Assembly: GCA_028695735.1 (NCBI GenBank) | Contig: JAQVIJ010000001.1 | Span: forward strand, 582,447 to 646,446 | Origin: Deltaproteobacteria bacterium | GTDB lineage: Bacteria; Desulfobacterota; Dissulfuribacteria; Dissulfuribacterales; DYLC01 | Reading direction: 5' to 3' | Length of the DNA: 64,000 bases | Part shown: positions 10,923-60,662 of the stretch, in pieces | How positions within the stretch are numbered: the stretch's first letter is position 1 | Layout of the letters: each line of letters starts with the position of its first letter | Translations under genes and position numbers: made by a program | Notes under the pieces: model-generated | Database searches by the model: none | Told to the model about the DNA's origin: nothing | Seen by the model: the letters and a program-made list of their open reading frames with translations, nothing else

Positions 10923-12065
10923 CTAAAAGTTGTAAGACAGGCTTCCAGTGCACTCCTCGAGGGTGGTCAAAATCTCTTCCTCAGGAACTACTGTCACCTC
11001 GCAATCCCCAATGCCTTTGTTGAGCACATAGTGAAGCTCACCGTCTTGAACCTTTTTGTCATGTTTCATGATGGTTAGGAGCTGTTGAGGCGTGAAACGG
11101 GAGGGAATCACATAGGGCAGGCCCACTTTCTCCAACAGCCTGACAAAGCGAGAGAATTCCTCAAAGACCATCTGCTGGCGCTTAAAGGCGATGCGGGCGG
11201 CCACCACCATGCCCATGCTCACAGCCTCTCCGTGTGAGATGGTATAATCAGCGGCTGCCTCTATGGCGTGACCGGCGGTATGGCCGAAGTTTAAGACCCG
11301 CCTGAGGCCTGCCTCTTTTTCATCCTGTTCCACTATGTCTGCCTTTATGGCACAGGACATGGCAACGATGGTGGTGATCACATCTGATTTGAGGGCCAAG
11401 ACCTCGTCCCACTGCTGCTCCAATATGCGAAAGAGCCGCGAGCTTCGAATCACGGCATATTTTATCACCTCAGCTAAGCCGTTTTTTAGCTCCTGTTCGA
11501 GTAGAGTGGAGAGGGTGTTGATGTCCGCCAGGACCAATTTGGGCTGGTAAAATGTGCCCAGAAGATTTTTCCCTTCGGGCAGGTCCACACCTGTCTTTCC
11601 GCCGATGGAGCTGTCCACCTGGGCAAGTAGAGTGGTGGGAAGCTGTATGAACGGAATGCCCCTCATATAGATGGAGGCCAGAAAGCCCGTGATATCCCCT
11701 GTTACGCCGCCGCCCAAGGCCAAGAGCATGGTCTTGCGGTCAGCGCCGATGCGTAGCAGCTCTTTGGCAAGGTATAAGATGGTCTCCATGTTTTTGCTGG
11801 CCTCGCCGGCAGGAAATGAGACGAGCTCTGCCTTGATGCCCCTGTCCTCCAACTGGTCTTGAAGGTTGGAGCCATAGAGGGTCTCTACAGTGGAGTCTGT
11901 GACGATCACATACCTGCTGGCCTGAAGGTGCCTTTGTTCTAAAAAGGACGGCAGGCAGGAGAGCAGGTCCGGACCGATGTAAATCTGGTACGAATGGTCC
12001 TTGAGCTGAACGGCAAGGGTCTGGGTTTCAAGGGGTAGATTTTGTGGAGTGAGAGGAGTGGCCAT
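10923..12065 (-). CDS. aroB: 3-dehydroquinate synthase
   Basis: 380 aa. GGGVTGDITGFLASIYMRGIPFIQLPTTLLAQVDSSIGGKTGVDL and NFGHTAGHAIE metal-binding motifs. Confidence 0.9.
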   Translation of the reverse strand: MATPLTPQNLPLETQTLAVQLKDHSYQIYIGPDLLSCLPSFLEQRHLQASRYVIVTDSTVETLYGSNLQDQLEDRGIKAELVSFPAGEASKNMETILYLAKELLRIGADRKTMLLALGGGVTGDITGFLASIYMRGIPFIQLPTTLLAQVDSSIGGKTGVDLPEGKNLLGTFYQPKLVLADINTLSTLLEQELKNGLAEVIKYAVIRSSRLFRILEQQWDEVLALKSDVITTIVAMSCAIKADIVEQDEKEAGLRRVLNFGHTAGHAIEAAADYTISHGEAVSMGMVVAARIAFKRQQMVFEEFSRFVRLLEKVGLPYVIPSRFTPQQLLTIMKHDKKVQDGELHYVLNKGIGDCEVTVVPEEEILTTLEECTGSLSYNF

Positions 12066-12101: not shown

Positions 12102-12199
12102 TGGCGGAAGCGCATGGGAATCGAACCCACCCACGAAGCTCTTCACCCCGTGCACTGGATTTGAAGTCCAGGAGGGCCACCAGTGCCCTTTCCGCTTCC
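12102..12199 (-). tRNA. selC: tRNA-Sec (selenocysteine tRNA, anticodon UCA)
   Basis: The reverse complement reads GGAAGCGG...CCUGGACUUCAAAUCCAG...long variable arm...GGGUUCGAUUCCC...GCGCUUCCGCCA. The anticodon loop is CUUCAAA (UCA). The 98-nt length, long extra arm and GGAAG/CUUCCGCCA ends closely resemble E. coli selC. Confidence 0.9.
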
Positions 12200-12663: not shown

Positions 12664-13134
12664 GTGAGAGTGGCCCTGGATACGAATATTTTGGCCTATG
12701 CTGAAGGGCTCGGGGATGAAGCCCGCTGTAGCGCGGCAATCCGCTTACTGGAACAACTACCAGGTGAAGCGGTATTGCTGCCGGCACAGACCTTAGGAGA
12801 GCTTTCTCGCGTTCTCTTGATCAAGGCCAAGCGCACGCCCAGCCAGGCACGCGAGGCTGTGTTGGACTGGGCAGACAGCTACGCAGTGGCGGACTCCACC
12901 TGGTCAGCCTTTCAATTTGCACTGGACTTGACCGCCGATCACGGCCTGCCCATCTGGGATGCATTGATTCTGGCCGTTGCCGCGGAAAACCATTGCCAAC
13001 TACTGCTCTCGGAAGACCTTCAGAATGGCTTCATCTGGCGCGGGGTGAGGGTGATCAATCCTTTTGTAGAGCCTCGCTCACCGCTGCTGATGAGTTTGTT
13101 GCAAGACTTCGGCAAAGACACAAAAGGCCAGTGA
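12664..13134 (+). CDS. vapC: PIN-domain toxin (VapC-like ribonuclease)
   Basis: 156 aa with a GTG start. PIN acidic residues are in the expected order (ALDTNIL..., ...GE..., DALILAVA, LLSED). Confidence 0.7.
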   Translation: MRVALDTNILAYAEGLGDEARCSAAIRLLEQLPGEAVLLPAQTLGELSRVLLIKAKRTPSQAREAVLDWADSYAVADSTWSAFQFALDLTADHGLPIWDALILAVAAENHCQLLLSEDLQNGFIWRGVRVINPFVEPRSPLLMSLLQDFGKDTKGQ

Positions 13135-16477: not shown

Positions 16478-18700
<2,223 letters not shown>

Positions 18701-18716
18701 TTACCTAATTGATTCA

Positions 18717-19181
18717 TCAAGTTTTTGTTGATTCAGCTTCATTGGCACACTGGTGGCAGATACCTTTTATCTCCAATTGAATCTTTTGTATCTCACCTAT
18801 TTTTCTTACCGCATCTGGTATGTTAAGGTTACTTAGTTCTTCACTATAGAAGTCGTATATGGTTCCGCAGTTGGTGCAGATAAAGTGATGATGTGGTTTA
18901 GTGTTTGTATCAAAGCGCATACGGCTGTATTGAGTTCCGAAAATATCTATCAGCCCGAGCTTGGCAAAGAGCTGAAGGGTGCGATAGACAGTATCCAGAG
19001 AAATGGTTGGAAGCTTTGAAGCGATATTTTTATAAATGGTTTCAGCATCAGGATGCCCTGCTGTTTTGCAGAGTTCTTTAAAGATCTCAAGGCGTTGGTG
19101 CGTGACCTTGATCCCTGCCTGTATTAAGGTTTTTTGAAATATTTCCAGCAGCGCCTCTGGGTCGGTTTCATGTCTCTGCAT
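18717..19181 (-). CDS. Fur-family transcriptional regulator (FurA/PerR-like), immediately upstream of katG
   Basis: 154 aa. Winged helix (ISLDTVYRTLQLFAKLGLI), HHHFICTNCG...CHQC metal sites. A 46-nt gap separates it from katG on the same strand. Confidence 0.85.
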   Translation of the reverse strand: MQRHETDPEALLEIFQKTLIQAGIKVTHQRLEIFKELCKTAGHPDAETIYKNIASKLPTISLDTVYRTLQLFAKLGLIDIFGTQYSRMRFDTNTKPHHHFICTNCGTIYDFYSEELSNLNIPDAVRKIGEIQKIQLEIKGICHQCANEAESTKT

Positions 19182-23424: not shown

Positions 23425-23631
23425 CTCGAATCTCAACTCCCATATCGGCTATTCGCACTCAATCATTGGACATCAGATTTGCTTTGATTTGGCATATTCA
23501 AATTTATAAGAGAATGGGAATCGTTCATTTTCTATTTTTTGAATAACAATCACCCATTGTTGTTTAGTTTCTGTAGCAATGACAAGAAGATAATAGTCAA
23601 TTATTCAACTTTTGCTCATTAAGGCTGTTTT

Positions 23632-23662
23632 TGGCATATAGATATAGCAAATCAATATGCCA
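23632..23662. promoter_or_regulatory. Inverted repeat TGGCATAT-N15-ATATGCCA upstream of the cytochrome promoter (candidate operator or activator site)
   Basis: 8-bp perfect arms at 23632-23639 and 23655-23662. A third TTTGGCAT copy lies at about 23489 and a fourth overlaps the -35 element. Confidence 0.35.
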
Positions 23663-23669
23663 TTTGGCA

Positions 23670-23698
23670 TTGACAATTCCAATAGTCTTCTTTATAGA
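23670..23698 (+). promoter_or_regulatory. Candidate sigma-70 promoter of the Sec-cytochrome gene
   Basis: TTGACA (23670-23675), a 17-nt spacer, TATAGA (23693-23698). An AGGAGG RBS at 23722-23727 precedes the ATG at 23734. Confidence 0.5.
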
Positions 23699-23733
23699 AT
23701 GACATTATCAAACTTTTATTTAGGAGGAAGCCT

Positions 23734-25065
23734 ATGAAGTTCAAACAGTTGGGTTTGTTGTGCCTGTGCGGCTGCCTTTTGGCGTCTGCCGCCTATGGCG
23801 CAGCCAAGTCAGAGCCTGCCAAGCCGGCCAAGGCCAAGACCATGGCGGAACTGGCAGCCAAGTACGACTCCAAGTCGTGTGAGGAATGTCATCCGGATGT
23901 GTATGAGCAGTGGCAGAAGTCCATTCACTCCCGTTCCCTTTTGGGTACGGGTCGCACCGCTCCCACCATTCTCACGGCCATTGATATGGGTATCAAGAAG
24001 TTCCCATACTCTGGCGTGAAGGAAGACAAGGACCTGGAGGTGAGACACTTTATGCTCTGCGCTAAGTGTCACCTGCCCCAGATAGATGAGGCAAGTGACG
24101 AGGTGGTGAGGGAGATCATCGCTACCATCAGGGCCTGGCAGAAAGAGGATAATGATGCCAAGAGAGAGGAGTTGGAAAAAAAGATCTCCAGCGTAAATAT
24201 CGGCTGTATGGTCTGTCACAACAAGAAGGCCATCATTCACAAGTGGGCGGACGGCTATCCACAGCCCGATACCGTCTATGGTTCCAAGGCAGGCAAGCAT
24301 GAACACCCCAAATTTGACAAGATGGCCAAGGCACCGGCCCTGGGTGAGTCCATCTTTTGCGGCCAGTGCCATGGTTCAGGCCCGAACTTCGAGTTGGATG
24401 AGCCTTCACAGTGCGCCACACTCTATGGCAGCTATCTCTTTGCCTATGTGCCTGAGGGCGGGCATGAGAGCTGTCAGCAGTGTCACATGAAAAAATCAGG
24501 TTTGGGTCATGACATGGAGGCCTATCGCAGCGAGGCCATGAGAAAGATGGCCGTCAAGACAGAGGTGGATGGCAGGGCATTGTTCTGGAGAAAGAACAAG
24601 AAGGAAGGCGTGGTGCCCATGGGTATTATCAACGTGGAGCTTTTGAACAAGGCTGGGCACGTCATTCCGGATGGGTGACCTACTCCTAATAGAGTGGTCC
24701 TGGAAGTGACCGCCAAAACCAACGATGGAAAAGAGATATACAAGGAACAGAAGATATATATGCCGTTCCCAGGCCGTTTGGGCCGGGGAGAGGAGATGGG
24801 CCGTGGTCCTTATGAAAAGAGCGGCCTGTTGAGGGAGACGAGTCTGCCGCCTCTTCGTCCTGTAAAGGAGACCTTCGAGATACCATTCCCATATGTGGAT
24901 ACCACCAAGGACGGCAAGCCTTACAGGGAGCTGGCCAAGGACGAGATGACTGTGTCCGTCAAGCTCTGGTATGTGCCGTTCGGTGAGTTCGATGGCAACG
25001 AGGTCCTCTTCTTCAGTGAGGATAAAAAACTCGAGCTCAAAGGTGAATGGATGTGGCATAATTAG
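23734..25065 (+). CDS. Secreted pentahaem c-type cytochrome, predicted selenoprotein (in-frame UGA at 24676-24678 read as Sec315)
   Basis: ORFs 23734..24678 and 24694..25065 share one frame and are split only by a TGA. The product has a signal peptide and five CXXCH motifs (CEECH, CAKCH, CMVCH, CGQCH, CQQCH). The 443-aa read-through product is colinear with the 446-aa paralogue at 56261..57601, including across the junction motif. Confidence 0.65.
24694..24713 (+). other. Candidate bacterial SECIS stem-loop
   Basis: GUGGUC (24694-24699) pairs with GACCGC (24708-24713): 5 Watson-Crick pairs plus 1 G-U. The 8-nt loop is CUGGAAGU. The loop starts 24 nt after the U of UGA, within the spacing I recall for bacterial SECIS elements. 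Confidence 0.4.
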
Positions 25066-25094
25066 ACATTAACCCCTTATAAATTCAAAGATGA

Positions 25095-25131
25095 AGCGGG
25101 ATAGGCGGAAAAGGCCTTTCCCGCTTTTTTA
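25095..25131 (+). terminator. Rho-independent terminator after the Sec-cytochrome gene
   Basis: AGCGGGA (25095-25101) pairs with TCCCGCT (25119-25125), with an inner AGGC/GCCT pairing, followed by TTTTTT. Confidence 0.7.
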
Positions 25132-25220
25132 TTTTGATGATTGTTTTTTTAAGCGGAGAGGTTATTGTTAAAAAAATTCATTGCATCTTTGTGTGAAATT
25201 GCCGAAAGGAAAGAATCGCC

Positions 25221-25568
25221 ATGGAAAAGCAACCCATCGCCTTTTGTTGTCTTTCTCTTGTCTTGGTTGCCTTGTCGGCTGGTGCGGAAGCGGATGTCAA
25301 ATGCGAACGCATAGGCAATACCACTGTCTGTTCCGATGGGACAACTTACGAGCATAAGGGAGACAAGACCATACGCTCTGATGGCGTGGTGTATGAGCAT
25401 ATCGGCAATACCACCATCAGCTCCACAGGAAAGGTATATGAGCAGAAAGGGGACGAGGTAAAGGTCTCAGACGGCAAGGTTTATAAAAAGGTGGGCACCG
25501 TCATCATAGGCAGTGATGGAACGGTATGCCAGACCAAAAACGGAGTGGTGGTCTGTGAAAGACCATGA
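25221..25568 (+). CDS. Small secreted protein built of tandem ~13-aa repeats
   Basis: 115 aa. Signal peptide (MEKQPIAFCCLSLVLVALSAGAEA), then 5-6 repeats of G-x-T-x-x-S-D-G-x-x-Y-E-x-K. Symmetric Cys pairs lie at both ends (KCERIGNTTVC ... VCQTKNGVVVCERP). Confidence 0.5.
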   Translation: MEKQPIAFCCLSLVLVALSAGAEADVKCERIGNTTVCSDGTTYEHKGDKTIRSDGVVYEHIGNTTISSTGKVYEQKGDEVKVSDGKVYKKVGTVIIGSDGTVCQTKNGVVVCERP

Positions 25569-46574: not shown

Positions 46575-47507
46575 ATGAACAACCGATTGAGCGTAAAACA
46601 CATATTGGGTGTGGAGCAGCTTACCCTGGAGGATATACGCCTCATTCTTGACACAGCAGAGGCCTTAAAGGAGATATTGGATCGCCCCATTAAGAAGGTG
46701 CCGCCGCTGCGTGGCTGCACTGTGGTGACCCTCTTCTTTGAGCCCAGCACCCGCACACGGCTCTCCTTTGAGCTGGCGGCGAAACGTCTAAGTGCTGATA
46801 CCGTCTCCGTGTCTGCTGCCACCAGCAGTGTGCTCAAGGGTGAAACCCTTCTGGATACCGTCAAAAATGTAGAGGCCATGCGGCCTGACATACTGGTTGT
46901 GCGGCACTCCTCTTCAGGCGCCCCTCATTTTTTGGCCCGACACCTCACCGGTTGCTCTGTCATCAATGCAGGAGACGGCATAAACCAGCATCCCACTCAG
47001 GCCCTGCTGGACCTCTTTACTGTGCGGGAGCGTTTAGGCCGGGTGAAAGGGCTCAAGATAGCCATTTTAGGCGATATCCTGCACAGTCGAGTGGCCCATT
47101 CCGATATCCGTATCTTTAAGGCCATGGGTGCCCATGTCTTTGTGTCAGGGCCCGCCAGTCTGCTGCCCATTGGCCTGGAGGCACTGGGGGCTTGTGTGAC
47201 TACCAAGGTGGAAGAGGCATTGGCGAGTGCGGATGTGGTGATGCTTTTAAGGCTTCAGAAGGAGAGGCAGGGCAGGTCCCTTATCCCTTCTGAGCGCGAG
47301 TATGCCAATTTTTTTGGCCTGGTCCAGGAAAGATGTCTGAATTTGGCCTCCGATGCCATTTTCATGCACCCTGGGCCCATCAATCGGGGTGTAGAGCTCA
47401 CTTCGGAATTGGCTGACTCACAGCAATCGGTCATTTTGAATCAGGTAACCAACGGCGTGGCGGTTCGAATGGCCATTTTGTCCCTTTTATGGGCTGACCG
47501 GAGTTGA
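46575..47507 (+). CDS. pyrB: Aspartate carbamoyltransferase catalytic subunit
   Basis: 310 aa. [16 protein letters not shown] and HPGP motifs. Confidence 0.95.
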
Positions 47508-47519
47508 AGGAGGCTTGTG

Positions 47520-48821
47520 ATGGAGTTGCTTTTTGAAAATGCCAGGTTGATAGACCCTGCCTCAGGCCTTGATGAAATGGGTGCTGTTTTGGTGAGAAAT
47601 GGCCGCATTGCGGGCATATTTTTGCTCAAAGACGGTTTTTCTGGGGAATTTACGCATCTTTTGCCCTCGCAGCGTTTCAATCTAAAGGGCCGTTGGCTGG
47701 TGCCTGGTCTCATTGACATGCATGTGCATCTGCGGGAGCCTGGAGAGGAATATAAAGAGACCATTGCCACCGGCACCAGGGCGGCTGCAGCAGGCGGTTT
47801 TGTGGCCGTTGCCTGCATGCCCAATACCAAACCAGTAAACGACGATGTGACGGTCACCACCTTTATTCGGCATAAGGCCGCCATGGAGGGCAGTGCAAGA
47901 GTCTATCCTGTGGCCTGTATCACCAAGGGCCAGGCAGGCCAGGCCTTGACAGAGATGGGGATGTTGCTGGAGGCAGGGGCCATAGCCTTTTCAGACGATG
48001 GAAGGCCTGTGAAGGACTCGGCTGTGATGCGCCTGGCCATGGAGTATGCACGGGGCTTTGATGCCCTCATCATCTCCCATGCCGAGGAGCTGGGCCTGGT
48101 GGCAGATGGTGTCATGAATGAAGGCCGTATGTCTCAGCTCTTGGGCCTGAAGGGGATACCCTCGGTAGCCGAGGAGATAGCCGTGTTTCGTGACATAGCC
48201 CTGGCCAAATACACGGGTGCCAGGCTGCACATAGCCCATGTGAGCACAAAGGCCGCAGTGGAGCTGATTCGCAGGGCCAAGGCTGAAGGTGTGGGTGTGA
48301 CAGCCGAGACCGCCCCCCATTATTTCACGCTGACCGAGGAGGCCGTGAATGGCTACAACACCAATGCAAAGATGAACCCTCCCCTTCGCACAGAAGAGGA
48401 CCGGCAGGCTGTGATAGAGGGCTTGAAGGATGGGACATTGGATGCCATTGCCACTGACCATGCGCCTCATAGCAGCCTGGAAAAGGAGGTGGAATTCGAT
48501 AGGGCGGCCAACGGTATAATCGGCTTGGAGACCGCCGTCTCCCTTTCCTTGGAACTGGTGCGCAGACACGGCATGAACCCCTTACAGCTCATCGCCTGTC
48601 TTTCCTGGAACCCTGCCCGTATTTTAAGGGTGGCAGGAGGAAGCCTGCGAGTCAATGAACCTGCTGACCTCTGTGTCATAGATGTGGATATGCCCTTTGA
48701 GGTCACAAGGGAAAACCTCTTTTCCAAGAGCTGTAATACGCCGTTTTTAGGACAGCGCCTCACCGGTCGAGTGGTGTTGACCATGAAGGCAGGGGTTGTG
48801 ACACATAGCCTTCTCAATTAG
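47520..48821 (+). CDS. pyrC: Dihydroorotase
   Basis: About 433 aa. IDMHVHLREPG, the carbamyl-Lys region and TDHAPH motif. A GTG at 47517 is an alternative start. Confidence 0.9.
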   Translation: MELLFENARLIDPASGLDEMGAVLVRNGRIAGIFLLKDGFSGEFTHLLPSQRFNLKGRWLVPGLIDMHVHLREPGEEYKETIATGTRAAAAGGFVAVACMPNTKPVNDDVTVTTFIRHKAAMEGSARVYPVACITKGQAGQALTEMGMLLEAGAIAFSDDGRPVKDSAVMRLAMEYARGFDALIISHAEELGLVADGVMNEGRMSQLLGLKGIPSVAEEIAVFRDIALAKYTGARLHIAHVSTKAAVELIRRAKAEGVGVTAETAPHYFTLTEEAVNGYNTNAKMNPPLRTEEDRQAVIEGLKDGTLDAIATDHAPHSSLEKEVEFDRAANGIIGLETAVSLSLELVRRHGMNPLQLIACLSWNPARILRVAGGSLRVNEPADLCVIDVDMPFEVTRENLFSKSCNTPFLGQRLTGRVVLTMKAGVVTHSLLN

Positions 48822-48827
48822 GGACCT

Positions 48828-50315
48828 ATGGCTCTTATCCTTTTGGTGGACGATGATCGAAGCCTGCGGGAGTTTTTAGAGATATTCCTCAAAAAGGAGG
48901 GGTATAGTGTCCTGTCTGCGGCCAATGCCGCAGAGGCCTTGAATCTCCTGAAGGCCCATGAAGGGATTAGAGTGGTGATCAGTGATATCCGTATGCCTGA
49001 CATGAGTGGCATTGAGCTATTAAGGCATGTCAAGGCCTTGAGGCCAGAGTTGCCGGTGGTCTTGATCACTGCCTTCGCCTCCATGGATACGGCCATCTCG
49101 GCCATGAAGGAAGGGGCATGGGACTATCTGACCAAGCCCTTTCGATTAGATGAGGTGCGCAGGGTCTTACAGAATGCCTTAAGTAGTGGCGTATCGTCAG
49201 CAACTACCGCAGGCCCTGATGCAGTGAGTGTTTCTGACCGGATACTCCATGCCCGGGGGCAGACCGCCGAGGCCAGTCCTGGTGTCTGCCCCCCTATACA
49301 TCGTCTGGATGCCATGGTGGCATGCAGTCCTGCCATGCTCAAGGTCTTTCAGCTCATTAAAAGGGTGGCCTCCAGCCCTTCCAGCGTCTTGATAACAGGT
49401 GAAAGCGGCACGGGAAAGGAACTGGTTGCACGGGCACTGCACAACCTGGGCAATCGGGCAAGCCAGCCCTTTGTGGTGGTGAATTGCGGCGGCATTCCAG
49501 AAAACCTGCTGGAGACCGAGCTCTTTGGTCATGTAAAAGGGGCATTTACAGGTGCAGATCGAGAGAAGGTGGGGCTCTTTGCCCTGGCGGACACAGGGAC
49601 CCTCTTTTTGGATGAGATAGGTGAGTTGCCCATGTCGCTTCAAGTGAAGTTATTGCGGGTGGTGCAGCAGAAGACCTTTATGCCTGTGGGTGGCACCAGG
49701 GAACAGCGAGTGGATGTGCGCATCGTTGCTGCCACCAACAGGGATTTGGAACAAGAGGTCATGGCCAAAAGGTTTCGAGAGGACCTCTTCTATCGTCTAA
49801 ATGTCATTCACATACACATCCCTCCACTTCGGGAGCGGCCTGAGGATATCCCTGTGTTAGTTCAGTATTTTTTGGATAAATTTGCCAGGGAACAGGGTAA
49901 GAGCCTTCAGGGTATCTCCAGTTTTGCCATGCAGATTCTGCAGGGGTACTCCTTCCCCGGAAATGTCAGGGAGTTGGAAAACATAGTGGAAAGGAGCGTT
50001 GCCCTGGAGACCTCCGGTATTTTGCTGCCGGAAAGCCTCTCCATCTCCCGTTTCAAAGAGAAGACAGAGACCTCTTTGGCTCAACAAGGGGGAAAAGGGG
50101 AGAGCAGCGAGGAGATATGCGTGATCCCTTCCTTTGAGGCATTTGAGATACCCAGGGAAGGAATGGAGCTGGACGGATTTCTGGCGCGTATTGAAAAGAC
50201 TCTGATTTTAAAGGCATTGCAGGCAGCCCATGGTTCCAAGACAGAGGCCGCAAGGCTTCTAAAGATCAACTTTCGTTCCTTTCGCTATCGTCTGGATAAA
50301 TACGGCATAGAATAA
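48828..50315 (+). CDS. Sigma-54-dependent response regulator (REC-AAA+-HTH, NtrC family)
   Basis: 495 aa. REC (VISDIRMPDMSG), GESGTGKE Walker A, GAFTGA motif and a C-terminal Fis-type HTH. Confidence 0.9.
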   Translation: MALILLVDDDRSLREFLEIFLKKEGYSVLSAANAAEALNLLKAHEGIRVVISDIRMPDMSGIELLRHVKALRPELPVVLITAFASMDTAISAMKEGAWDYLTKPFRLDEVRRVLQNALSSGVSSATTAGPDAVSVSDRILHARGQTAEASPGVCPPIHRLDAMVACSPAMLKVFQLIKRVASSPSSVLITGESGTGKELVARALHNLGNRASQPFVVVNCGGIPENLLETELFGHVKGAFTGADREKVGLFALADTGTLFLDEIGELPMSLQVKLLRVVQQKTFMPVGGTREQRVDVRIVAATNRDLEQEVMAKRFREDLFYRLNVIHIHIPPLRERPEDIPVLVQYFLDKFAREQGKSLQGISSFAMQILQGYSFPGNVRELENIVERSVALETSGILLPESLSISRFKEKTETSLAQQGGKGESSEEICVIPSFEAFEIPREGMELDGFLARIEKTLILKALQAAHGSKTEAARLLKINFRSFRYRLDKYGIE

Positions 50316-50316
50316 A

Positions 50317-52095
50317 ATGCTCAATCATTTTCGCCGCGCCTTTCATTCGAAGGCCTCAGAAGAGGCAAAAGATACCCGCTTTTCCTTTGAATGGGAGTTG
50401 TTTTCTCCTGAACCCCTGGATTATAGGCAGTTTCAATGGCTCACATGGGGCAGGCTGGTCCTGGTGCTTTTTCTGCTTGCCGCCATCTTTCTGTTTTCCA
50501 ACTACCTCGGCCCCATTGGAAGGCTGCCGGATGTCTTGGTCAAGGTGGCCTATCTCTCTTTGGCTGCCCTGGCCGTAACCTATGGTTACATTCAGTGGTA
50601 TAAGACAGGCAAGTGGTTGAGACAGTTGTCCCTGCTTCAGATCTCTTTGGACATTCTGTTTGTAGCAGCGGTGGTCTATGTAACAGGAATGGCATTTAGT
50701 CCGTTTCTGTTTCTGTTCCCTGTCATTGTGGTGGCTGCCTGCCTGTTGCAGGGCAGACAGGGCGGTCAGTTTGCAGCGGTTGCCTGTACTGTGCTGTATG
50801 TGGGGATAGTCGGGCTGGACAGGGCCTTTTTTCTACAGGACACCTCCAATCTCATTGTTTTTTTTGTGAATATCATCGTGGTGAATATCACGGCCCTGTT
50901 GGTAGGCGTCCTGGCCGAGCGCTTGAGGCGTGCGGAACGCCGTCTCTCAGTGGCCGTTGTGGATCTGAGGCGTTTAAGGGAGATGGAGCGGCATCTGGCC
51001 GACAATTTAGTGTCAGGCCTTGTGATGTTAAATACTGAAGGTCATATTTTGGCATTGAACAGACGCGCAGAGGCCATTTTGGGGGTTAGGTCCACTGATT
51101 ATGCTGGCAGGCTGCTTTCTGAGCTCTGGCCTGCCATAGGGCCTGATTTTGATGAGATCAGGGCCTGGTTTGCAAAAACAGAGGGTCTGCGCAGGGAGAT
51201 ACTCCACAATGCACCTTCAGGTGAGATCCTTTTGGGGCTTTCAGGATTTGCCATGCAGGATGAAAAGGGTGGGCTTTTGGGCTATGGCATCATCTTTCAG
51301 GACCTGACCGAGATCAGACGGCAAGAGGAGAGGCTTCGACGAGTGGAGAGGCTGGCCTCTTTGGGCGAAATGGCCGCAGGCATGGCCCATGAGATTCGAA
51401 ATCCCCTGGCCTCCATATCAGGGGTGGTGGAATTTTTGCAGGAAGGGGGCATGGTAACCGCCGATGGCGCAAAACTTCTGGAAATCCTGCAGCGGGAGAT
51501 TCAACGGCTGACCGAGCTCACTCAGGCCTTTTTGTTGTATGCCAGGCCTGAAAGGGGCGGTGAGCAGCCTGTAAATCTCTTGAATGCCATAAATGAGACC
51601 CTGGGGCTTTTAAGCAGCCGCAAGTTGGCTGGCCTGCATGTGAATATACAGGTCCCTTCCGAGCTGTGTGTCGTGGTCAATCCCACCCAGTTTCGTCAGG
51701 TATTGTGGAATCTGCTTTTAAATGCTGTGCAGGCCATGATGCCCAAGCTGGAGAAGGGAGAGGATGTCACGCTATTTGTGGGAGTGGAACCAGTGAGCCA
51801 GGTGGGCGTTTTCGATGCGGTTGAGGCGAAAACTACTCAAAAAACCAGTGAGCAAAAGGCTCTCAGTCGAGTCAGCCTTATCGTGGAGGACAGTGGAGTG
51901 GGGATACCTGAAGGCCAGTTGAGTCGCATATTTGAGCCGTTTTTTACCACTCGAGGCGATGGCACTGGCCTGGGGCTTTCCATCGTGCAGAGGTTGGTGG
52001 AGGCCTGGGGAGGCTCTGTGGAGTGTTCTTCTCAAGAGGGTGTGGGGACCAGATTCAGGGTGCTGTTGCCTGTTTCAGATTCTCCAAAAACCTGA
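50317..52095 (+). CDS. Membrane sensor histidine kinase (multi-TM N-domain, PAS, HisKA, HATPase_c)
   Basis: 592 aa. 5-6 TM helices, canonical H-box MAHEIRNPL and G boxes (DSGVGI, GTGLGLS). Confidence 0.85.
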   Translation: MLNHFRRAFHSKASEEAKDTRFSFEWELFSPEPLDYRQFQWLTWGRLVLVLFLLAAIFLFSNYLGPIGRLPDVLVKVAYLSLAALAVTYGYIQWYKTGKWLRQLSLLQISLDILFVAAVVYVTGMAFSPFLFLFPVIVVAACLLQGRQGGQFAAVACTVLYVGIVGLDRAFFLQDTSNLIVFFVNIIVVNITALLVGVLAERLRRAERRLSVAVVDLRRLREMERHLADNLVSGLVMLNTEGHILALNRRAEAILGVRSTDYAGRLLSELWPAIGPDFDEIRAWFAKTEGLRREILHNAPSGEILLGLSGFAMQDEKGGLLGYGIIFQDLTEIRRQEERLRRVERLASLGEMAAGMAHEIRNPLASISGVVEFLQEGGMVTADGAKLLEILQREIQRLTELTQAFLLYARPERGGEQPVNLLNAINETLGLLSSRKLAGLHVNIQVPSELCVVVNPTQFRQVLWNLLLNAVQAMMPKLEKGEDVTLFVGVEPVSQVGVFDAVEAKTTQKTSEQKALSRVSLIVEDSGVGIPEGQLSRIFEPFFTTRGDGTGLGLSIVQRLVEAWGGSVECSSQEGVGTRFRVLLPVSDSPKT

Positions 52096-54959: not shown

Positions 54960-55535
54960 ATGAAAAAACTCAAAGGAACCCAGACCGAACGCAACATACT
55001 GACCGCCTTTGCCGGTGAATCCCAGGCACGAAACCGCTATACCTTTTTTGCCGGCCAGGCCAAGAAGGATGGCTATGTGCAGATAGCCGATATCTTTGAG
55101 GAGACGGCCAACCAGGAGAAGGAACACGCCAAGAGGCTCTTTAAGCTGTTGGAGGGCGGCGAGGTGGAGATTCAGGCCGCCTTTCCCGCCGGCATCATCT
55201 CCAATACCTATGACAATCTCATAGCCGCAGCCAATGGAGAAAACTATGAACAGACCATCATGTATCCTGGTTTTGCAAAGATAGCCATAGAGGAGGGCTT
55301 TCAGGAATTGGCCTGTATCTTTGAGGCCATAGCCGTGGCCGAACGCCAGCACGAGAAGCGCTATAGGGAGCTGGCTGCCAACATAGTGGCGGATCGGGTC
55401 TTCAAGCGGGATACAGAGGTGGTCTGGCGCTGCCGCAACTGCGGTTATCTGCATAAGGGTAGTGCCGCTCCGGAAAAGTGCCCTGCCTGTGCCCATCATA
55501 AGGCACATTTTGAGCTTTTGGCAGAGAATTGGTAG
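54960..55535 (+). CDS. rbr: Rubrerythrin
   Basis: 191 aa. Diiron four-helix bundle (E..E..H pairs: [29 protein letters not shown]) and a C-terminal rubredoxin-like CRNCG...CPAC. Confidence 0.95.
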
Positions 55536-55593
55536 TTTTTTGTATTTGCAACTCAAACCATATCAAACTAAATCAAAAAAGGAGGTACTTGTC

Positions 55594-56232
55594 ATGTGTG
55601 AGTTTGTTACCAACGAGGCACCTAACTTCAAGGCAACCGCTGTAATGGCCGACAATTCCTTTAAGGAGATCAGCCTGTCGGACTATAGGGGTAAGTATGT
55701 GCTCCTGTTCTTCTATCCGCTGGATTTTACCTTTGTCTGCCCTTCCGAGATACTGGCCTTTGACAGGGCGGTTGACGAATTTCAAAAGAGAAACTGTGAG
55801 GTGATCGGTGTGTCTGTGGACTCCCATTTCACTCACTTGGCCTGGAAGGAGACCCCTGTGGAAAAGGGCGGCATCGGTTCTGTGAGATTTCCATTGGTGG
55901 CCGACCTGTCCAAGTCCATCTCCCGTGACTATGGCGTGCTTTTGGAAAGCGGCATAGCCCTTCGCGGCCTGTTCCTCATAGACAAGGACGGCATTATTCG
56001 CCACATGCTGGTCAATGACCTGCCCCTGGGCAGAAGCGTGGATGAGGCCCTGAGAGTCCTGGATGCCCTCCAGTTTGTGGAGAAGCACGGAGAGGTCTGC
56101 CCTGCCAACTGGAAGCCTGGCGAAGAGGCCATGAAGCCTACCAAGGAGGGGGTGGCGGAGTACCTGGCCAAACATGCCAAGCCGGCTGCCTCCTGTTGCT
56201 CCACCGGCGGCGGTTCCTGTTGCTGTTCATAG
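55594..56232 (+). CDS. Typical 2-Cys peroxiredoxin (AhpC/Prx1 type) with a Cys-rich C-terminal tail
   Basis: I trimmed the start to ATG 55594 (GGAGG at 55581). The peroxidatic site is DFTFVCPSE and the resolving site is GEVCPANW. An extra tail follows: [18 protein letters not shown]. Confidence 0.9.
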
Positions 56233-56260
56233 TTACAGATTCCATTCATAAGGAGGACAT

Positions 56261-57601
56261 ATGAAGAGACTTCTATCAGTTATGGCTGTGAGTGCTGTGG
56301 TGGCGGCGCCTCTGTTTGTAGGCGCGGCAGAGATGGGCAAGTTCAAGTATGACGACTTTCAAAAACCCACTGACTGTGGCATGTGCCATACAGAGATATA
56401 TCAGGAGTGGAAGCAGGCCATGATGTCCCAGTCTTTTACCCATGAGTGGGATGAGGTGGAGTACTTCAAGTTGGCCCTGCCTCATTCTCAAAAATTGGAG
56501 AAGGTCTCTGGCGTAAAGGGGGGGTGTGTCGCCTGCCATGGGCCGCTGGCCTTTTTGTCAGGTGATATTCCGCCCAAGCCCGTAAAGGCCGGAACGCGCG
56601 CCAACGAAGGTGTCTCCTGCGAGATATGCCATAACATCACAGGCTCCACCGAGCAGACGCCCTTTAACTTCAGCTTTGTGATTCAGCCAGGGGATGTAAA
56701 GCAGGGGCCCAGAAAGGATGTGAAGTCTCCGGGCCATGGCGTGAATTTCTCTGAGTTTACTCGCAGTCCTGAGCTCTGTGCCACCTGTCACGATGAGCAG
56801 AGCCCTTACGGGGCATGGGTCAAGGAGACCTATCGGGAATGGAAGGCAGGCCCTTACAGCAAAGAAGGTGTGCGTTGTCAGGACTGCCACATGTATCGGG
56901 CGCCTGGCGTGCCTGGCATGGGTGGTCAGGAGCGCCCTGACATGGCGCATCACACCTTTCATGGCAGCCACTTCCCCAGCAAGCTGGCAGGGGCCATTGA
57001 TCTGGCCCTCTATGCAGAAGAGGATGAGGTGTCGCCTGGTAAGGGCCTCACAGTGCGTTCAGAGCTCTTTAACGGCAAGGCAGGGCATTATGTGCCATCC
57101 GGTTCCACTGAGGAGCGCATGCTCTGGTTAGAGGTGTGGCTCACCGATGCCAAAGGCAAAAGATATGCCTTAAAGGTGCAGCCCAAGGGCTTTAAGGGTG
57201 AGGAATACACGGTGGCTGATTCCAAGGCCATGGCCTATCAGGACATAGGTGAGATCATGGACCTGGCTAACTTTAAGGGCCTGAAGCGGGACGGCAATGT
57301 GCCCGATGGCTCCCGTATCTTTAGGCGCCCGTTCTTCAATCCCAAGGGCGAGATGACCGTAGCCCAGTGGTATACTGCCAAAAACGATGTGGTGGACTAT
57401 CGCATAGGGCCTCGTGAGACCAAGATTGAACACTTTAAGCTGGAACTGCCCAAGGATGTGGCAAAGGGCCAGGCCACTGTGACGGCACGGCTCCTCTATA
57501 GCCAGATTCCCAGTTCTGTAGGTGAGTTTTTCAAGCTCTCCAAGGAGGAATACGCCCCCATTTTGGTCAATGAGGCCAGAGTGATGGTGAATGTAAAATA
57601 G
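56261..57601 (+). CDS. Secreted pentahaem c-type cytochrome (paralogue of the Sec-cytochrome at 23734)
   Basis: 446 aa. Signal peptide ([10 protein letters not shown]) and five CXXCH motifs (CGMCH, CVACH, CEICH, CATCH, CQDCH). The conserved motif is [22 protein letters not shown], followed by a C-terminal non-haem domain. Confidence 0.8.
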
Positions 57602-57616
57602 TTGTTACAAAAGGCA

Positions 57617-58061: not shown

Positions 58062-58141
58062 AAGGGCGTTTTGTTGACAAGGCGGCGGCAGTTATCTGCC
58101 GCCATGTGAAATGGGGTTTTACCCATAAATAAGGAGTGCTT

Positions 58142-58663
58142 ATGTTGAGTCCTAAATTAGAAGAGGCATTAAATCAGCAAATAAACGCCGAATTGTATTC
58201 GGCATATCTATATTTTTCCATGGCAACCTATCTTTCTTCCATTGATTTGGCCGGCTGTGCCCATTGGATGCATGCCCAGACGCAGGAGGAGCTGCTTCAT
58301 TCCTCCAAGATGTATGAGTATGTAAATGAGCGAGGCGGCCGCGTGGTTTTGAATGCAATAAAGGCCCCCAAGACTCAATGGGCCTCCCCCCTTGAGGTGT
58401 TTGAAGACGCCTATCGGCATGAGCAGCATGTGACGAGCCTCATAAATAGCCTCATGGAGTTGGCTATCTCAGAAAAGGACCACGCCACTCAGATCTTTTT
58501 GCAGTGGTTTGTCTCCGAACAGGTGGAGGAAGAGGCCTCTGCCAATGGTGTGGTGCAGCGTATGAAGCTGGCTCAGGCCTCGCCTGGCGGGCTTTTTATG
58601 ATAGACAAGGAGTTATCCACTCGTCCCGTGCCTTTTGTCCTGGCAACAGCCAATAAGGCCTAA
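58142..58663 (+). CDS. ftn: Ferritin (non-haem, Ftn-type)
   Basis: 173 aa from ATG 58142 (AAGGAG 5 nt upstream). Ferroxidase residues sit in NAELYSAYLY, EELLHSSK and QWFVSEQVEEE. Confidence 0.9.
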   Translation: MLSPKLEEALNQQINAELYSAYLYFSMATYLSSIDLAGCAHWMHAQTQEELLHSSKMYEYVNERGGRVVLNAIKAPKTQWASPLEVFEDAYRHEQHVTSLINSLMELAISEKDHATQIFLQWFVSEQVEEEASANGVVQRMKLAQASPGGLFMIDKELSTRPVPFVLATANKA

Positions 58664-58686: not shown

Positions 58687-59082
58687 ATGAGCAGACCTGA
58701 AGATATGTGGCAGTGTCAGACCATCAATTGCGGTTACATCTATGACCCTGACAGAGGTGATAGAAAGGGCAAGATTCCCAAGGGGACCCGCTTTGAGGAC
58801 CTCCCCGATGACTGGAAGTGCCCTGTATGTGGGGCGGGTAAGTCCATGTTCAGGCCATTGGCCGGCCCTGGCTCGGTGATGGAGCGGGATAAACAGGAAA
58901 CTGTGGCCCCACAGGCCGATGCAGGTCCTAAGTATAGATGCAATGTCTGCGGCTATATCTATGACCCGGCGGTGGGGGATGCCTCACAGGGTGTGGCGCC
59001 TGGCACTGCCTTTGAGGCACTGCCTGAAAATTGGAAGTGCCCTGTGTGTGGCGCAAGCAAGGAGGAGTTTGAGGAGATCTGA
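58687..59082 (+). CDS. Tandem rubredoxin (CX4C-type domain plus canonical CX2C domain)
   Basis: 131 aa. Domain 1 is [14 protein letters not shown]...WKCPVCG, with four residues between the first Cys pair. Domain 2 is [12 protein letters not shown]...WKCPVCG. Confidence 0.85.
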
Positions 59083-59083
59083 C

Positions 59084-59437
59084 ATGACGGCCCAACGAAC
59101 GGTTATATTTGCGTTTAAGGGAGAGCCCATGTGTTTTATACATGTGCTTTTAAATGCCTTGGACATGCAGAATAAGGGCATGGCATGTGAGGTCGTTATA
59201 GAGGGTGAGGCCACCAAACTCCTGCCTGAACTGGAGCAACCATCCCATTTTTTGCATGACCTTTATACACAGGTCAAGACAAAGGGTCTGATAACGGCTG
59301 TGTGTAAGGCCTGTTCCAAGAAGATGGGGGTCCTTGAGCAGATTCAGGCCTTGAGTCTGCCTTTAAGTGACGAGATGTCAGGACACCCTTCCATGGCCAG
59401 GTTTATTTCACAGGGTTTTCATGTGATTGTAATGTAA
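59084..59437 (+). CDS. DsrE/DsrF-like (DrsE_2) small protein
   Basis: 117 aa, starting 1 nt after the rubredoxin stop. The pattern is VIFAFKGEPMCFIHVLLNAL...VVIEGEATKL...ITAVCKAC. Confidence 0.5.
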   Translation: MTAQRTVIFAFKGEPMCFIHVLLNALDMQNKGMACEVVIEGEATKLLPELEQPSHFLHDLYTQVKTKGLITAVCKACSKKMGVLEQIQALSLPLSDEMSGHPSMARFISQGFHVIVM

Positions 59438-59465: not shown

Positions 59466-60662
59466 ATGATTACAGAGATCAAGAAGGATATCTATTGGGT
59501 GGGCGCCATTGATTGGACCATCAGGGACTTTCACGGCTACTCCACCTATGAAGGCACCACTTATAACGCCTATCTCTTGAAGGACGAGAAGACGGTACTC
59601 TTTGACACGGTGAAGAAGTCCAAGATGAGTGACCTGGTGCACCATATCCGTTCCCTTACCGATCCTCAAAAGATAGACTATATCGTGGTAAACCATGTGG
59701 AGATGGATCACTCAGGTTCATTGCCTGAGATGATAGACCTCATCAAGCCTGAGAAGGTGATCTGTTCCAGCATGGGCAAAAAGGCCCTGTTGGACCACTT
59801 TCATCGAGAGGATTGGCCCTATGAGGTGGTAGCGCCGGGTCAGGTGATCAGCGTGGGCAAGCGTTCCATTCAGTTCATCGAGACCCGTATGCTGCACTGG
59901 CCTGACAGCATGTTTTCTTATATTCCAGAGGAAAAGCTCCTCATCTCCAGCGATGCCTTCGGCGAACACTGGGCCACCAGCGAACGCTTTGACGACGAGG
60001 TGGACTTCACCACCTTGATGCAGCACAATGCCAAGTATTATGCCAACATACTGCTGCTCTACTCACCCCTGGTCGCTAAGCTCATCGAAAATGTGAAAAA
60101 GCTCGGCCTTCAGATCGATATGATCGCCCCTGACCACGGCCTCATCAAGCGTAAACATGTGGCCGAGATCCTGCAGGCATATGCAGACTGGGCCAACCAC
60201 AAGGCCAAGAAAAAGGCGGTGGTGGTCTATGACACCATGTGGCACAGCACAGAGATGATGGCCAAGGCAGTGGCGGACGGCCTCATGCGTGAGGGCGTGA
60301 GCGTAAAGCTCATGGACCTGCAGGTCTGCCACAGAAGCGATGTGATGACAGAGGTCCTGGACGCCAAGGCGGTTGTCCTGGGCTGTCCGACCCTGAACAA
60401 CGGCCTGCTGCCACGCATGGCGGGCTTTCTCATGTATATGCGGGGGCTTAAGCCAGGCGGAAAGATCGGCGCTGCCTTTGGTTCCTATGGCTGGAGCGGC
60501 GAGGCGGTGAAGCTCATGAACCAGGCCATGGAGGAGATGAAGTTCGATATCGTGCACGAGGGGATTCGCGTAAAATATGTCCCTGTGCACGAAAACCTCA
60601 AGGAATGCGTGGAATTGGGCAAAAAGGTCGGACAGGCTGTAAAGGCCGCTTTAGGAGAGTAA
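59466..60662 (+). CDS. Flavodiiron protein (rubredoxin:oxygen oxidoreductase / FprA type)
   Basis: 398 aa. Metallo-beta-lactamase-like diiron motif NHVEMDHSGS and a C-terminal flavodoxin domain (VVVYDTMWHSTE..., GCPTLNNG). Confidence 0.9.
   Translation: MITEIKKDIYWVGAIDWTIRDFHGYSTYEGTTYNAYLLKDEKTVLFDTVKKSKMSDLVHHIRSLTDPQKIDYIVVNHVEMDHSGSLPEMIDLIKPEKVICSSMGKKALLDHFHREDWPYEVVAPGQVISVGKRSIQFIETRMLHWPDSMFSYIPEEKLLISSDAFGEHWATSERFDDEVDFTTLMQHNAKYYANILLLYSPLVAKLIENVKKLGLQIDMIAPDHGLIKRKHVAEILQAYADWANHKAKKKAVVVYDTMWHSTEMMAKAVADGLMREGVSVKLMDLQVCHRSDVMTEVLDAKAVVLGCPTLNNGLLPRMAGFLMYMRGLKPGGKIGAAFGSYGWSGEAVKLMNQAMEEMKFDIVHEGIRVKYVPVHENLKECVELGKKVGQAVKAALGE

Follow-up and report, generated by a model that had tools for sequence, protein, structure and literature searches.

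Positions 23734-25065 of the window (the whole 64,000-nucleotide stretch of DNA analysed here) very probably hold a single, monocistronic gene of the MccSep/ExtKL family, whose product would be a periplasmic pentahaem cytochrome enzyme with one selenocysteine (Sec). MccSep is a five-haem periplasmic selenoenzyme, purified and crystallised, which reduces polysulfide in sulfur respiration and whose Sec works beside a haem with His/Cys ligation (Mihara et al., Sci Adv 2026; PMC13510729). It is identical to ExtKL (GSU2937-2936) of Geobacter sulfurreducens PCA, and its structures are deposited as PDB 9WT8, 9WT9, 9WTA, 9WTB, and 9WTC (PMC13510729). The G. sulfurreducens enzyme is a homotetramer with 0.96 Se and 4.9 Fe per subunit, and its Sec peptide, VEMTNHAGHSIPDGUPTPNR, has been verified by mass spectrometry (MS) (PMC13510729). 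Both polysulfide and selenite are reduced by this sole characterised member, with polysulfide kinetically preferred; activity is lost upon U325A, U325C, and C239H substitution, the U325C variant being nearly inactive, and an mccSep knockout is impaired in S0 respiration (PMC13510729). ExtKL was predicted in silico before 2018, and both NCBIfam and reviews count it among the selenoprotein families. The structural paper lists 637 MccSep homologues (PMC13510729). The gene in the window is an ordinary member of this already known family. The original prediction had envisaged a haem/selenium redox site of a new kind; that site has already been described structurally and biochemically, while the accompanying guess that it might be chalcogen-reactive fits the published activity of the family on polysulfide and selenite (PMC13510729).

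The two open reading frames (ORFs) at 23734..24678 and 24694..25065 are one gene with a single in-frame TGA (24676-24678) between them. This continuity is read directly from the sequence, as is the product of 443 sense codons from ATG 23734 to the TAG at 25063-25065, and both agree with what was first reported. The gene and its expression signals are as follows:

23670..23698, + strand: putative sigma-70 promoter (-35 TTGACA at 23670-23675, 17-nt spacer, -10 TATAGA at 23693-23698), read from the sequence
23722-23727, + strand: Shine-Dalgarno AGGAGG, 6 nt 5' of the ATG
23734..25065 including TAG, + strand: mccSep/extKL, 443-aa pentahaem c-type cytochrome selenoprotein (NF040886, PDB 9wt9_A)
25093..25135, + strand: intrinsic terminator, a GC-rich stem of 9 bp that has a nested stem, followed by UUUUUUAUUUU

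The block TTGGCATTGACAATTC...CTTTATAG is kept in the two closest relatives while the sequence upstream of it diverges, which is consistent with a sigma-70 promoter 5' of the gene; a consensus scanner made no promoter call because the final base of the -10 element is not T. The Shine-Dalgarno sequence is conserved in the related loci L001 and L002. The terminator region (25080-25140) folds at -26.0 kcal/mol, and was overlooked by a simple scanner because its loop exceeds 8 nt. A palindrome upstream of the -35 element, ATGCCATTTGGCAT, was considered as an operator and dropped, as it is conserved in neither L001 nor L002.

Family membership is clear. The read-through protein scores 580.9 bits against NF040886, "multiheme c-type cytochrome (seleno)protein ExtKL" (an NCBIfam equivalog with a curated cutoff of 250 bits), covering profile positions 7-423 of 423. 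It matches PDB 9wt9_A (MccSep) with E=5e-151 over residues 9-435 (chain residues 17-445), with 9wt8 and 9wt9 both at E of about 1e-150, and its identity to G. sulfurreducens MccSep is 51.5%. The original prediction had read the locus as one gene for a pentahaem c-type cytochrome, with the UGA as selenocysteine, and had tentatively mentioned ExtKL; the full-length matches, with the UGA falling on Sec325, support this reading and show ExtKL to be the correct family. Alignment to MccSep assigns the protein features:

23734..23799, + strand: probable Sec-type signal peptide by inspection, MKFKQ, hydrophobic core, then AYG/AAK (slash, cleavage)
23878..23892, + strand: haem 1 motif C49-E-E-C52-H53 (MccSep C58/C61/H62)
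23953..23955, + strand: Arg74 (R83, anion-binding at the substrate channel)
24058..24072, + strand: haem 2 (active-site haem) motif C109-A-K-C112-H113, with H113 as proximal ligand (H122)
24205..24219, + strand: haem 3 motif C158-M-V-C161-H162
24358..24372, + strand: haem 4 motif C209-G-Q-C212-H213
24412..24414, + strand: Cys227 (C239, distal Cys ligand of haem 2)
24472..24486, + strand: haem 5 motif C247-Q-Q-C250-H251
24676..24678, + strand: UGA read as selenocysteine, Sec315 (U325), within the loop D313-G314-U315-P316; in the alignment it pairs with residue 325 in the crystal chain of the U325A variant
24817..24819, + strand: Lys362 (K372, water-mediated contact to Sec, needed for Vmax)

The five CXXCH motifs that had been counted in the read-through protein (beginning at C49, C109, C158, C209, and C247) align one-to-one with those of PDB 9wt9, and the two proteins are colinear over their full length. 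All catalytic residues are present: the alignment to MccSep is identical at the positions of R83, H122, C239, D323-G324-U325-P326, and K372, and the Sec lies in a D-G-U-P loop within AGH.IPDGUPTPNR in both proteins. With H113 and C227 both in place, haem 2 is predicted to have His/Cys axial ligation as in Geobacter. On the other hand, the neighbouring C240 of the Geobacter enzyme is replaced here by Ala228; C239 is essential and strictly conserved, but C240 is neither conserved nor needed (PMC13510729). The putative signal peptide has a typical n/h/c layout and aligns with the leader region that is cleaved after residue 25 of G. sulfurreducens MccSep, as determined by Edman sequencing (PMC13510729). 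Judged by sequence, the shared C-terminal Ig-like beta-sandwich domain is likewise covered, as the alignment to the crystallised chain reaches residue 435 of 443.

The UGA itself is conserved among homologues, beyond what chance would give. TGA occupies the same column in 114 of the 117 homologous loci that cover the site, namely in 50 of 53 species-level genome loci (61-96% identity) and in all 64 metagenome loci of the Geobacter-type clade. The three exceptions (L050, L051, and L053) are the most divergent loci and carry Cys at this column (...FPDGCPSPNR...), so that residue 315, for which this alignment had been suggested as a check, pairs with Sec or Cys throughout. These Cys-type homologues, exemplified by a Thermodesulfovibrionales metagenome-assembled genome (MAG), share the architecture of MccSep and the motif IGHRFPDG-C-PSPNR at about 41% identity; they differ in having Cys for Sec, an uninterrupted ORF, and no hairpin after the codon. 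On these comparative grounds the in-frame UGA almost certainly encodes selenocysteine, and we infer that Sec is inserted in the source organism.

Public gene callers instead cut the gene into a product of 314 aa and a separate 'hypothetical' of 119/123 aa. This automatic annotation, and the presence of a GTG at 24694 in the window, would suit two genes, an 'ExtK' of 314 aa ending at the UGA and an 'ExtL' of about 120 aa translated independently, but such an arrangement is scarcely credible. The GTG is in frame with ATG 23734, 960 nt (320 codons) downstream, and it does lack a Shine-Dalgarno sequence, as was claimed at the outset: nothing resembling AGGAGG occurs in the 20 nt 5' of it. The supposed start, codon 321, is CTG (Leu) in 46 of 51 sequences, and the 15 nt from the TGA to the GTG encode PTPNR, which is invariant across loci. 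The ORFs of the Cys-type homologues run through this position uninterrupted. Moreover, the Geobacter product is one 49-kDa polypeptide by Western blot, MS, and crystallography, in which the C-terminal domain supplies the active-site Sec (PMC13510729). The halves of mccSep/extKL should therefore be merged, with Sec at codon 315, and the locus is a clear example of how standard callers turn one selenoprotein gene into two entries, a shortened cytochrome and a 'hypothetical protein'.

The chance that the gene is a pseudogene, or that its TGA is a sequencing or assembly error, is practically negligible. Such a reading has the in-frame stop in its favour and nothing else, and the comparative data already refute it: the identical 314-aa product is present on 19 independent metagenome contigs, and 114 independent loci have a TGA in the same column, flanked on either side by sequence under purifying selection and accompanied by no further lesions. 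An altered genetic code, with UGA as a sense codon, was also considered and rejected, because other genes of the window use TGA as a normal stop codon: pseB, porC, and pyrB, which have full-length profile matches, all end at it. A screen for further TGA-split in-frame ORF pairs, as possible selenoproteins, gave only adjacent genes and shadow ORFs.

The Sec-decoding machinery is represented in the window by its tRNA:

12102..12199, - strand: tRNA-Sec (selC), anticodon UCA, CCA encoded

This gene, noted in the first reading of the window, is found by ARAGORN and by Rfam RF01852, where it scores 73.2 bits (gathering score, 47) over model positions 1-91 of 91. No selA, selB, or selD was found among the scanned ORFs of at least 150 aa within the 64-kb window. 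UGA followed by C is a leaky stop context, and this context and the missing SelA, SelB, and SelD among the ORFs scanned are what could be said for read-through of the UGA by a near-cognate tRNA (Trp or Cys) in place of Sec-tRNASec. Decoding of this kind is very improbable, given the tRNA-Sec encoded in the window and a hairpin under RNA-level selection at SECIS distance. A non-Sec product would also be expected to be non-functional, since the Geobacter U325C variant is nearly inactive (PMC13510729), and this is hard to square with the strict conservation of the TGA.

Two RNA structures, both on the + strand, can form at or beyond the UGA:

24694..24713, + strand: SECIS-type hairpin, GUGGUCC-UGGAA-G(U)GACCGC, from comparative RNA evidence
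24677..24699, + strand: UGA-proximal stem, GACC.ACUC/GAGUGGUC, from the minimum free energy fold of the window sequence

The stem of the SECIS-type hairpin starts 15 nt past the UGA and its apical loop 22 nt past it, with G at loop positions 2-3. The bSECISearch consensus attributed to Zhang and Gladyshev (2005) is reported to place the apical loop 16-37 nt past the UGA, with a G near the start of the loop, and the hairpin of the window shares both features. Over 37 sequences, 90.7% of cells are paired, with 2 compensatory pairs, a result reached by only 6 of 500 shuffles; owing to strong conservation of the encoded protein in this region, the covariation comprises few independent changes. L004, L005, and L009 have two amino acids changed, and yet retain a perfect hairpin with the same loop. 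Constraint at the RNA level is also evident from codon usage: among 143 columns (conserved codon columns of at least fourfold degeneracy), just four, codons 321, 322, 323, and 325, have a synonymous entropy of 0.5 bit or less, against a gene median of 1.81. The hairpin is absent from the Cys-type homologues. In the Geobacter clade, as in the window, the UGA is followed by a hairpin whose loop begins with UGG, but the two differ in sequence, and the distance from the UGA is about 6 nt greater for the window element (+18..+37 versus +13..+31). It extends beyond the 'UGA+30 nt' stretch folded in the MccSep paper (PMC13510729). Like bacterial SECIS elements of the E. coli fdhF type, it is a hairpin within the coding sequence soon after the UGA, with a bulged U in its 3' arm; it has no sequence similarity to these, and its stem is short (5 + 2 bp). 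The position of the SECIS of this clade at +18..+37, where synonymous variation drops sharply, is an incremental point that could guide recoding experiments.

The stem-loop that the original prediction placed after the UGA is probably the UGA-proximal stem. A stem-loop is indeed present there, but the single-sequence fold of 24670-24740 is no better than shuffles (z=0.07), which makes it no evidence in itself, and this obvious stem lacks comparative support; the relevant hairpin sits 15 nt past the UGA and not on top of it. The UGA-proximal stem contains the UGA itself and is thermodynamically preferred (-9.3 kcal/mol, pair probability about 0.88) over the SECIS-type hairpin, which alone folds at -7.7 kcal/mol. 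As a SECIS it was rejected: it shows 0 compensatory changes, pairing of its inner part is confined to the window and L002, and it breaks wherever GGUC changes, with unrepaired breaks in L004, L005, L009, L032, and L038. As GGUC is common to both structures, the helix at 24677-24699 and the hairpin at 24694-24713 are mutually exclusive. The UGA-proximal stem is probably incidental and competes with the SECIS for GGUC, though the two could also, as a rather improbable secondary possibility, constitute a ribosome-triggered switch, in which the SECIS is presented only once the ribosome melts the UGA-sequestering helix. A covariance-model check over the UGA region was negative, with tRNA-Sec as the sole Rfam match and no SECIS family reaching its gathering score in the whole window or E<=10 on 24640-24780, as is expected of bacterial SECIS elements, which are short and gene-specific.

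A mechanism for the Sec-containing enzyme can be proposed largely from its Geobacter counterpart. With the ribosome at UGA 24676-24678, the hairpin at 24694-24713 would stand just beyond the mRNA channel and would recruit SelB-GTP-Sec-tRNASec, such that Sec315 is inserted without termination. The N-terminal helical domain would carry five haems in a Y-shaped chain, with haem 2 unusually ligated by His113 and Cys227. By analogy, the Sec315 selenolate would attack polysulfide (or selenite) held near Arg74, the Se-S adduct would swing toward Cys227, a Sec-Se-S-S-Cys bridge would form, and electrons from the haem chain would reduce this bridge, releasing sulfide. The functional partner of the Sec would be the haem-2-ligating Cys227, and not the His-x-x-Pro that had been pointed to at first. 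The periplasmic location, the tetrameric state, and the substrate of the window enzyme are likewise extrapolated from the Geobacter protein and should be taken as presumptive. The authors of the MccSep study name TsdA, SoxAX, and thioredoxin reductase as analogues (PMC13510729). TsdA and SoxAX are sulfur-metabolism enzymes with a His/Cys-ligated haem, and their chalcogen chemistry takes place at this Cys-ligated haem; the selenoprotein thioredoxin reductase has a Sec-Cys redox pair like that of MccSep. These are analogies only, as the folds are unrelated and none of the three is homologous to MccSep. Unlike MccSep, none of the three joins Sec to haem.

The genomic setting differs from that of Geobacter. 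In G. sulfurreducens, the ext context comprises extHIJ (rhodanese, porin, and small protein) and extMNOPQS (cytochromes, Rieske protein, and cytochrome b), whereas the window gene is stand-alone, with its own promoter-like element and terminator, outside any extHIJKLMNOPQS cluster. No extH/I/J or extM-S gene adjoins it in the window; its neighbours are comEC, gmhA, a gene for a small secreted repeat protein, cheX, and a PHP phosphatase gene. Across 54 loci there is no conserved partner gene, the best neighbour cluster being found in 18 of the 54. Because the Geobacter ext context is absent, neither the electron donor nor, as a consequence, the physiological role is confidently transferable. 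The host, in contrast to G. sulfurreducens, is an uncultured Desulfobulbales/Dissulfuribacterales-like bacterium, and the closest relatives are MAGs labelled Dissulfuribacterales or Desulfobulbaceae, taxa linked with sulfur reduction or disproportionation (PMC13510729). A role in sulfur or polysulfide respiration or disproportionation in such a host is suggested, which marks the organism as a likely selenium-dependent reducer or disproportionator of polysulfide or elemental sulfur.

Members of the same enzyme family could nevertheless do another job here, such as sulfur/polysulfide disproportionation, selenite detoxification or assimilation, or a stress response, in place of S0 respiration. 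This is unlikely. In its favour, flanking extH/I/J or extM-S genes and a conserved neighbour are missing, the nearest relatives belong to the sulfur-reducing or disproportionating taxa named above, and purified Geobacter enzyme also reduces selenite (PMC13510729). KatG and a PerR-like regulator 4.5 kb upstream also speak for another job, but these are on the opposite strand with three unrelated genes between. Against another job, every substrate-channel and catalytic residue is conserved, the only characterised member kinetically favours polysulfide (PMC13510729), and a tandem-rhodanese gene lies immediately downstream in nine relatives, which points to sulfur chemistry. More specifically, this solitary MccSep, uncoupled from the ext cluster, may use another donor for disproportionation or another chalcogen reaction in place of S0 respiration, a suggestion that we regard as rather improbable. 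As an MccSep/ExtKL gene, the locus is one more stand-alone, non-Geobacter example of a family whose mechanism has newly been solved, and it raises no new question by itself.

A second pentahaem protein of the window, the 446-aa product of 56261..57601, had been put forward as an uninterrupted paralogue. It does have five CXXCH motifs, and it aligns to the Sec-site motif KAGHVIPDG-U-PTPNR, but the proposed C-terminal homology is only partial, as the BLASTP alignment to the read-through protein (24% identity, E=8e-7) stops at residue 333. Among solved structures it matches cytochrome c552 (5ZE8) best, and its ExtKL model score of 58.5 bits is below the cutoff of 250. It was rejected as support for the Sec site and is best regarded as a distant relative in a cytochrome c552-like family. 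At the Sec position it has Ser, and the BLASTP alignment gives no equivalent of the haem-ligating Cys; because it belongs to a different pentahaem family, this Ser is uninformative on the Sec site. The cytochrome c552 family, this protein included, is weakly related in sequence to MccSep (E=2e-6 to 1e-9), with which it shares five CXXCH motifs, a similar length, and a signal peptide.

The two open reading frames at 23734-25065 constitute one gene, mccSep (extKL), whose frame is split by a single TGA and then stays open to a TAG, as the original prediction had held. A reading of 23600-25200 and translation of 23734-25065 give the following features:

23670-23675 and 23693-23698, + strand: putative near-consensus promoter read from the sequence (-35 TTGACA, 17-nt spacer, TATAGA)
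23734, + strand: start ATG, with AGGAGG ahead of it at 23722-23727
24676-24678, + strand: sole in-frame TGA
25063-25065, + strand: stop TAG, in the frame of the upstream part
25093-25135, + strand: strong intrinsic terminator, by folding

The read-through product has 443 sense codons and five CXXCH motifs. The GTG at 24694, which opens the second mechanical ORF, is in frame and, as predicted, lacks a Shine-Dalgarno-like sequence ahead of it.

With Cys put in place of the stop, the protein matches NCBIfam NF040886, "multiheme c-type cytochrome (seleno)protein ExtKL", at 580.9 bits over profile positions 7-423 of 423 (curated cutoff, 250 bits); Pfam returns generic multihaem domains alone. In the PDB it matches MccSep (9WT8, 9WT9, 9WTA, 9WTB, and 9WTC; E ~1e-150, residues 9-435), with 51.5% identity to the Geobacter protein over 425 positions. 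These matches bear out the earlier reading of a selenocysteine multihaem cytochrome, including its tentative link to ExtKL. The accompanying idea of a new type of haem/selenium site does not hold, since the family, its Sec, structure, activity, and physiological role are published, and a curated equivalog names it. The gene is a member of an already known family, which was predicted to be a selenoprotein family before 2018 (PMC5877670) and is entered as NF040886 in a 2026 review of prokaryotic selenoproteomes (PMC13188914).

In G. sulfurreducens, gsu2937-2936 (extKL) yields a single periplasmic 49-kDa polypeptide, a homotetramer with 0.96 Se and 4.9 Fe per subunit, from which the peptide VEMTNHAGHSIPDGUPTPNR was identified by MS (Mihara et al., Sci Adv 2026, PMC13510729); its equivalent in the window is VELLNKAGHVIPDG-UGA-PTPNR. 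MccSep acts on polysulfide (preferred) and selenite, and is inactive on sulfite, thiosulfate, nitrite, and the other compounds assayed; an mccSep knockout has a defect in S0 respiration (PMC13510729). In the crystal structures, five haems sit in an N-terminal domain, and a C-terminal Ig-like domain positions Sec325 beside haem 2 (ligands His122/Cys239); U325A, U325C, and C239H have almost no activity left, and both R83A and K372A are impaired (PMC13510729). In the mechanism proposed by the authors, the substrate is attacked by Sec, which then swings towards Cys239, giving a Se-(S/Se)-S bridge that is reduced by way of the haem chain (PMC13510729). Of the 637 homologues in their set, 394 came from UGA read-through; the set falls into five clades, chiefly of Nitrospirota and Desulfobacterota (PMC13510729). 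In the PDB alignment, the five CXXCH motifs correspond one-to-one, and the residues (Geobacter to window) as follows:

R83 to R74
H122 to H113
C239 to C227
C240 to Ala228 (C240 is dispensable and non-conserved according to the authors, PMC13510729)
D323-G324-U325-P326 to D313-G314-U315-P316
K372 to K362

Judged by its sequence, the window copy passes the sequence-level tests of MccSep/ExtKL membership, with a signal peptide that is probable; the sole test that fails is the Geobacter-specific cluster context, which is not family-defining. By homology, Sec insertion and activity would be expected of it as well; its electron donor and physiological role in this uncultured lineage are less certain.

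Residue 315 was compared across relatives. With one genome per species, TGA occupies exactly this column in 50 of 53 genome loci (61-96% identical); the frame is kept on either side of it, and the PTPNR that follows does not vary. In the remaining three, which are the most divergent (41% identical; Thermodesulfovibrionales and others), the ORF is unbroken and has Cys (...FPDGCPSPNR...). Starting from the Geobacter sequence, a metagenome scan found 71 loci; the site is covered in 64, and every one of these has TGA. Gene callers end the protein here: the best 120 of 1405 protein-database relatives are all 286-346 aa long, and the exact 314-aa window product occurs on 19 metagenome contigs with the same neighbours, the second half being called as a separate hypothetical protein of 119/123 aa. 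Within the window, pseB, porC, and pyrB use TGA as an ordinary stop. Taken together, the comparative loci and this stop usage exclude an altered genetic code, a pseudogene, a sequencing error, and two independent genes, the last being an outcome that would have spoken against the original prediction.

Two RNA structures follow from the sequence around the UGA. The minimum free energy fold of the window's own sequence, at -9.3 kcal/mol, is a stem with the UGA in it (24677-24699), and it does no better than shuffles. The other, a SECIS-type hairpin at +18..+37, recurs over 45 distinct sequences:

24694-24713, + strand: distal hairpin GUGGUCC-UGGAA-G(U)GACCGC, -7.7 kcal/mol folded alone

In an alignment of 37 distinct sequences with 500 shuffles, the distal hairpin has 90.7% of cells paired and two compensatory pairs (6/500 shuffles reach the observed value), the changes being G-C to A-U in L032 and L038; the UGA-proximal stem has 85.5% paired and none compensatory (reached by 227/500 and 500/500 shuffles, respectively), and is disrupted wherever GGUC varies. 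In three loci (L004, L005, L009) with V to I and T to S changes, the hairpin is still perfect, at 7 bp and with the same loop, UGGAU. The strongest evidence for the distal hairpin is at the codon level: over 143 alignment columns with a conserved amino acid and at least four-fold degeneracy, median synonymous codon entropy is 1.81 bits, and it falls to 0.5 bit or less in four columns only, residues 321, 322, 323, and 325 (24694-24708), exactly those of the hairpin. Its loop begins 22 nt past the UGA, with G at loop positions 2-3 and a bulged U, a geometry that agrees with the bacterial SECIS consensus reportedly described by Zhang and Gladyshev in 2005. In the Geobacter-type clade, the hairpin differs in sequence (ACCGAC-UGGUUCU-GUCGGU, +13..+31); that of a third subgroup resembles the window's and has the loop UGUAU, and the Cys-type genes have none.

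GGUC (24696-24699) can pair with GACC at 24677-24680 (the UGA-Pro codons) or at 24708-24711, so that the helix sequestering the UGA excludes the SECIS hairpin, and vice versa. Ribosome geometry suggests that the proximal stem, because it contains the UGA, would be melted with the UGA in the A site, which would set GGUC free for the distal hairpin. In the Geobacter clade, ACCGAC is similarly duplicated, and each copy is complementary to GUCGGU. The double pairing is possibly incidental, as the proximal helix is without covariation support.

The predicted tRNA-Sec was recovered by both ARAGORN and Rfam:

12102..12199, - strand: tRNA-Sec (RF01852, 73.2 bits, gathering score 47, full model)

It is flanked by aroB (10923..12065, same strand) and a PIN-domain ORF (12664..13134), beyond which lies an OAFO-type 2-oxoacid:acceptor oxidoreductase alpha subunit; neither selA nor selB adjoins it. 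No selA, selB, or selD was found among the larger ORFs of the 64-kb window.

The gene looks monocistronic; its promoter and 5'UTR are conserved in the two closest relatives, and sequence further upstream diverges. Upstream lie a SprA-related ORF, comEC, and gmhA; the genes that follow mccSep encode a 115-aa secreted repeat protein, CheX, a PHP phosphatase, a protein with a bifunctional-nuclease domain, and MiaB. The Geobacter ext genes are all missing from this neighbourhood. The 115-aa ORF (25221-25568, +), directly after the terminator, has a signal peptide and imperfect repeats of ~12-15 aa (GNTT.. SDG..VYEHKGD...), no Pfam/NCBIfam match, and a called gene on all related metagenome contigs. 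On L056 (1-1998, JGI 3300045276), a contig with an identical MccSep N-terminal product, comEC is two overlapping ORFs (415 and 449 aa) versus one 844-aa gene, which suggests a frameshift or assembly error.

Among 54 loci compared, mccSep has no universal neighbour. A histidine kinase, a sigma-54 (NtrC-type) response regulator, and pyrC adjoin it in about 10-16, flanking it convergently in L007, L014, L018-L025, and L031; in the window, this trio and pyrB lie 22 kb off (46575-52095, +). The two-component system near pyrC may be either a regulator of mccSep or a mere syntenic neighbour. In nine loci from Desulfofustis/Desulfocapsaceae-like genomes (L026, L028, L035, L036, L037, L040, L046, L047, L048), a tandem-rhodanese gene (~250 aa, two PF00581 domains, active-site loop CSTGAR) lies about 0.8-1.7 kb downstream, reminiscent of ExtH, the rhodanese encoded in the ext cluster of Geobacter; the window's mccSep has no such gene beside it.

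The catalase-peroxidase KatG (1299 bits) and a PerR-like regulator of the Fur family (16478-19181, -), encoded 4.5 kb upstream of mccSep on the opposite strand, are probably unrelated to the selenoprotein. The 446-aa pentahaem protein encoded at 56261..57601, proposed as a colinear paralogue, does have five CXXCH and a motif aligning with KAGHVIPDG-U-PTPNR, but the relationship is remote (24% identity, E=8e-7), and the BLASTP alignment stops at residue 333. Its best PDB match is cytochrome c552 (5ZE8). The genes around it (55462-60662, +) look like an oxidative-stress cluster, with an AhpC-type peroxiredoxin upstream (55462..56232, start probably Met45, unusual Cys-rich tail) and, downstream:

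58136..58663, + strand: ferritin-like protein
58919..59437, + strand: DsrE-like ORF, weak match
59466..60662, + strand: flavodiiron/flavorubredoxin-like protein
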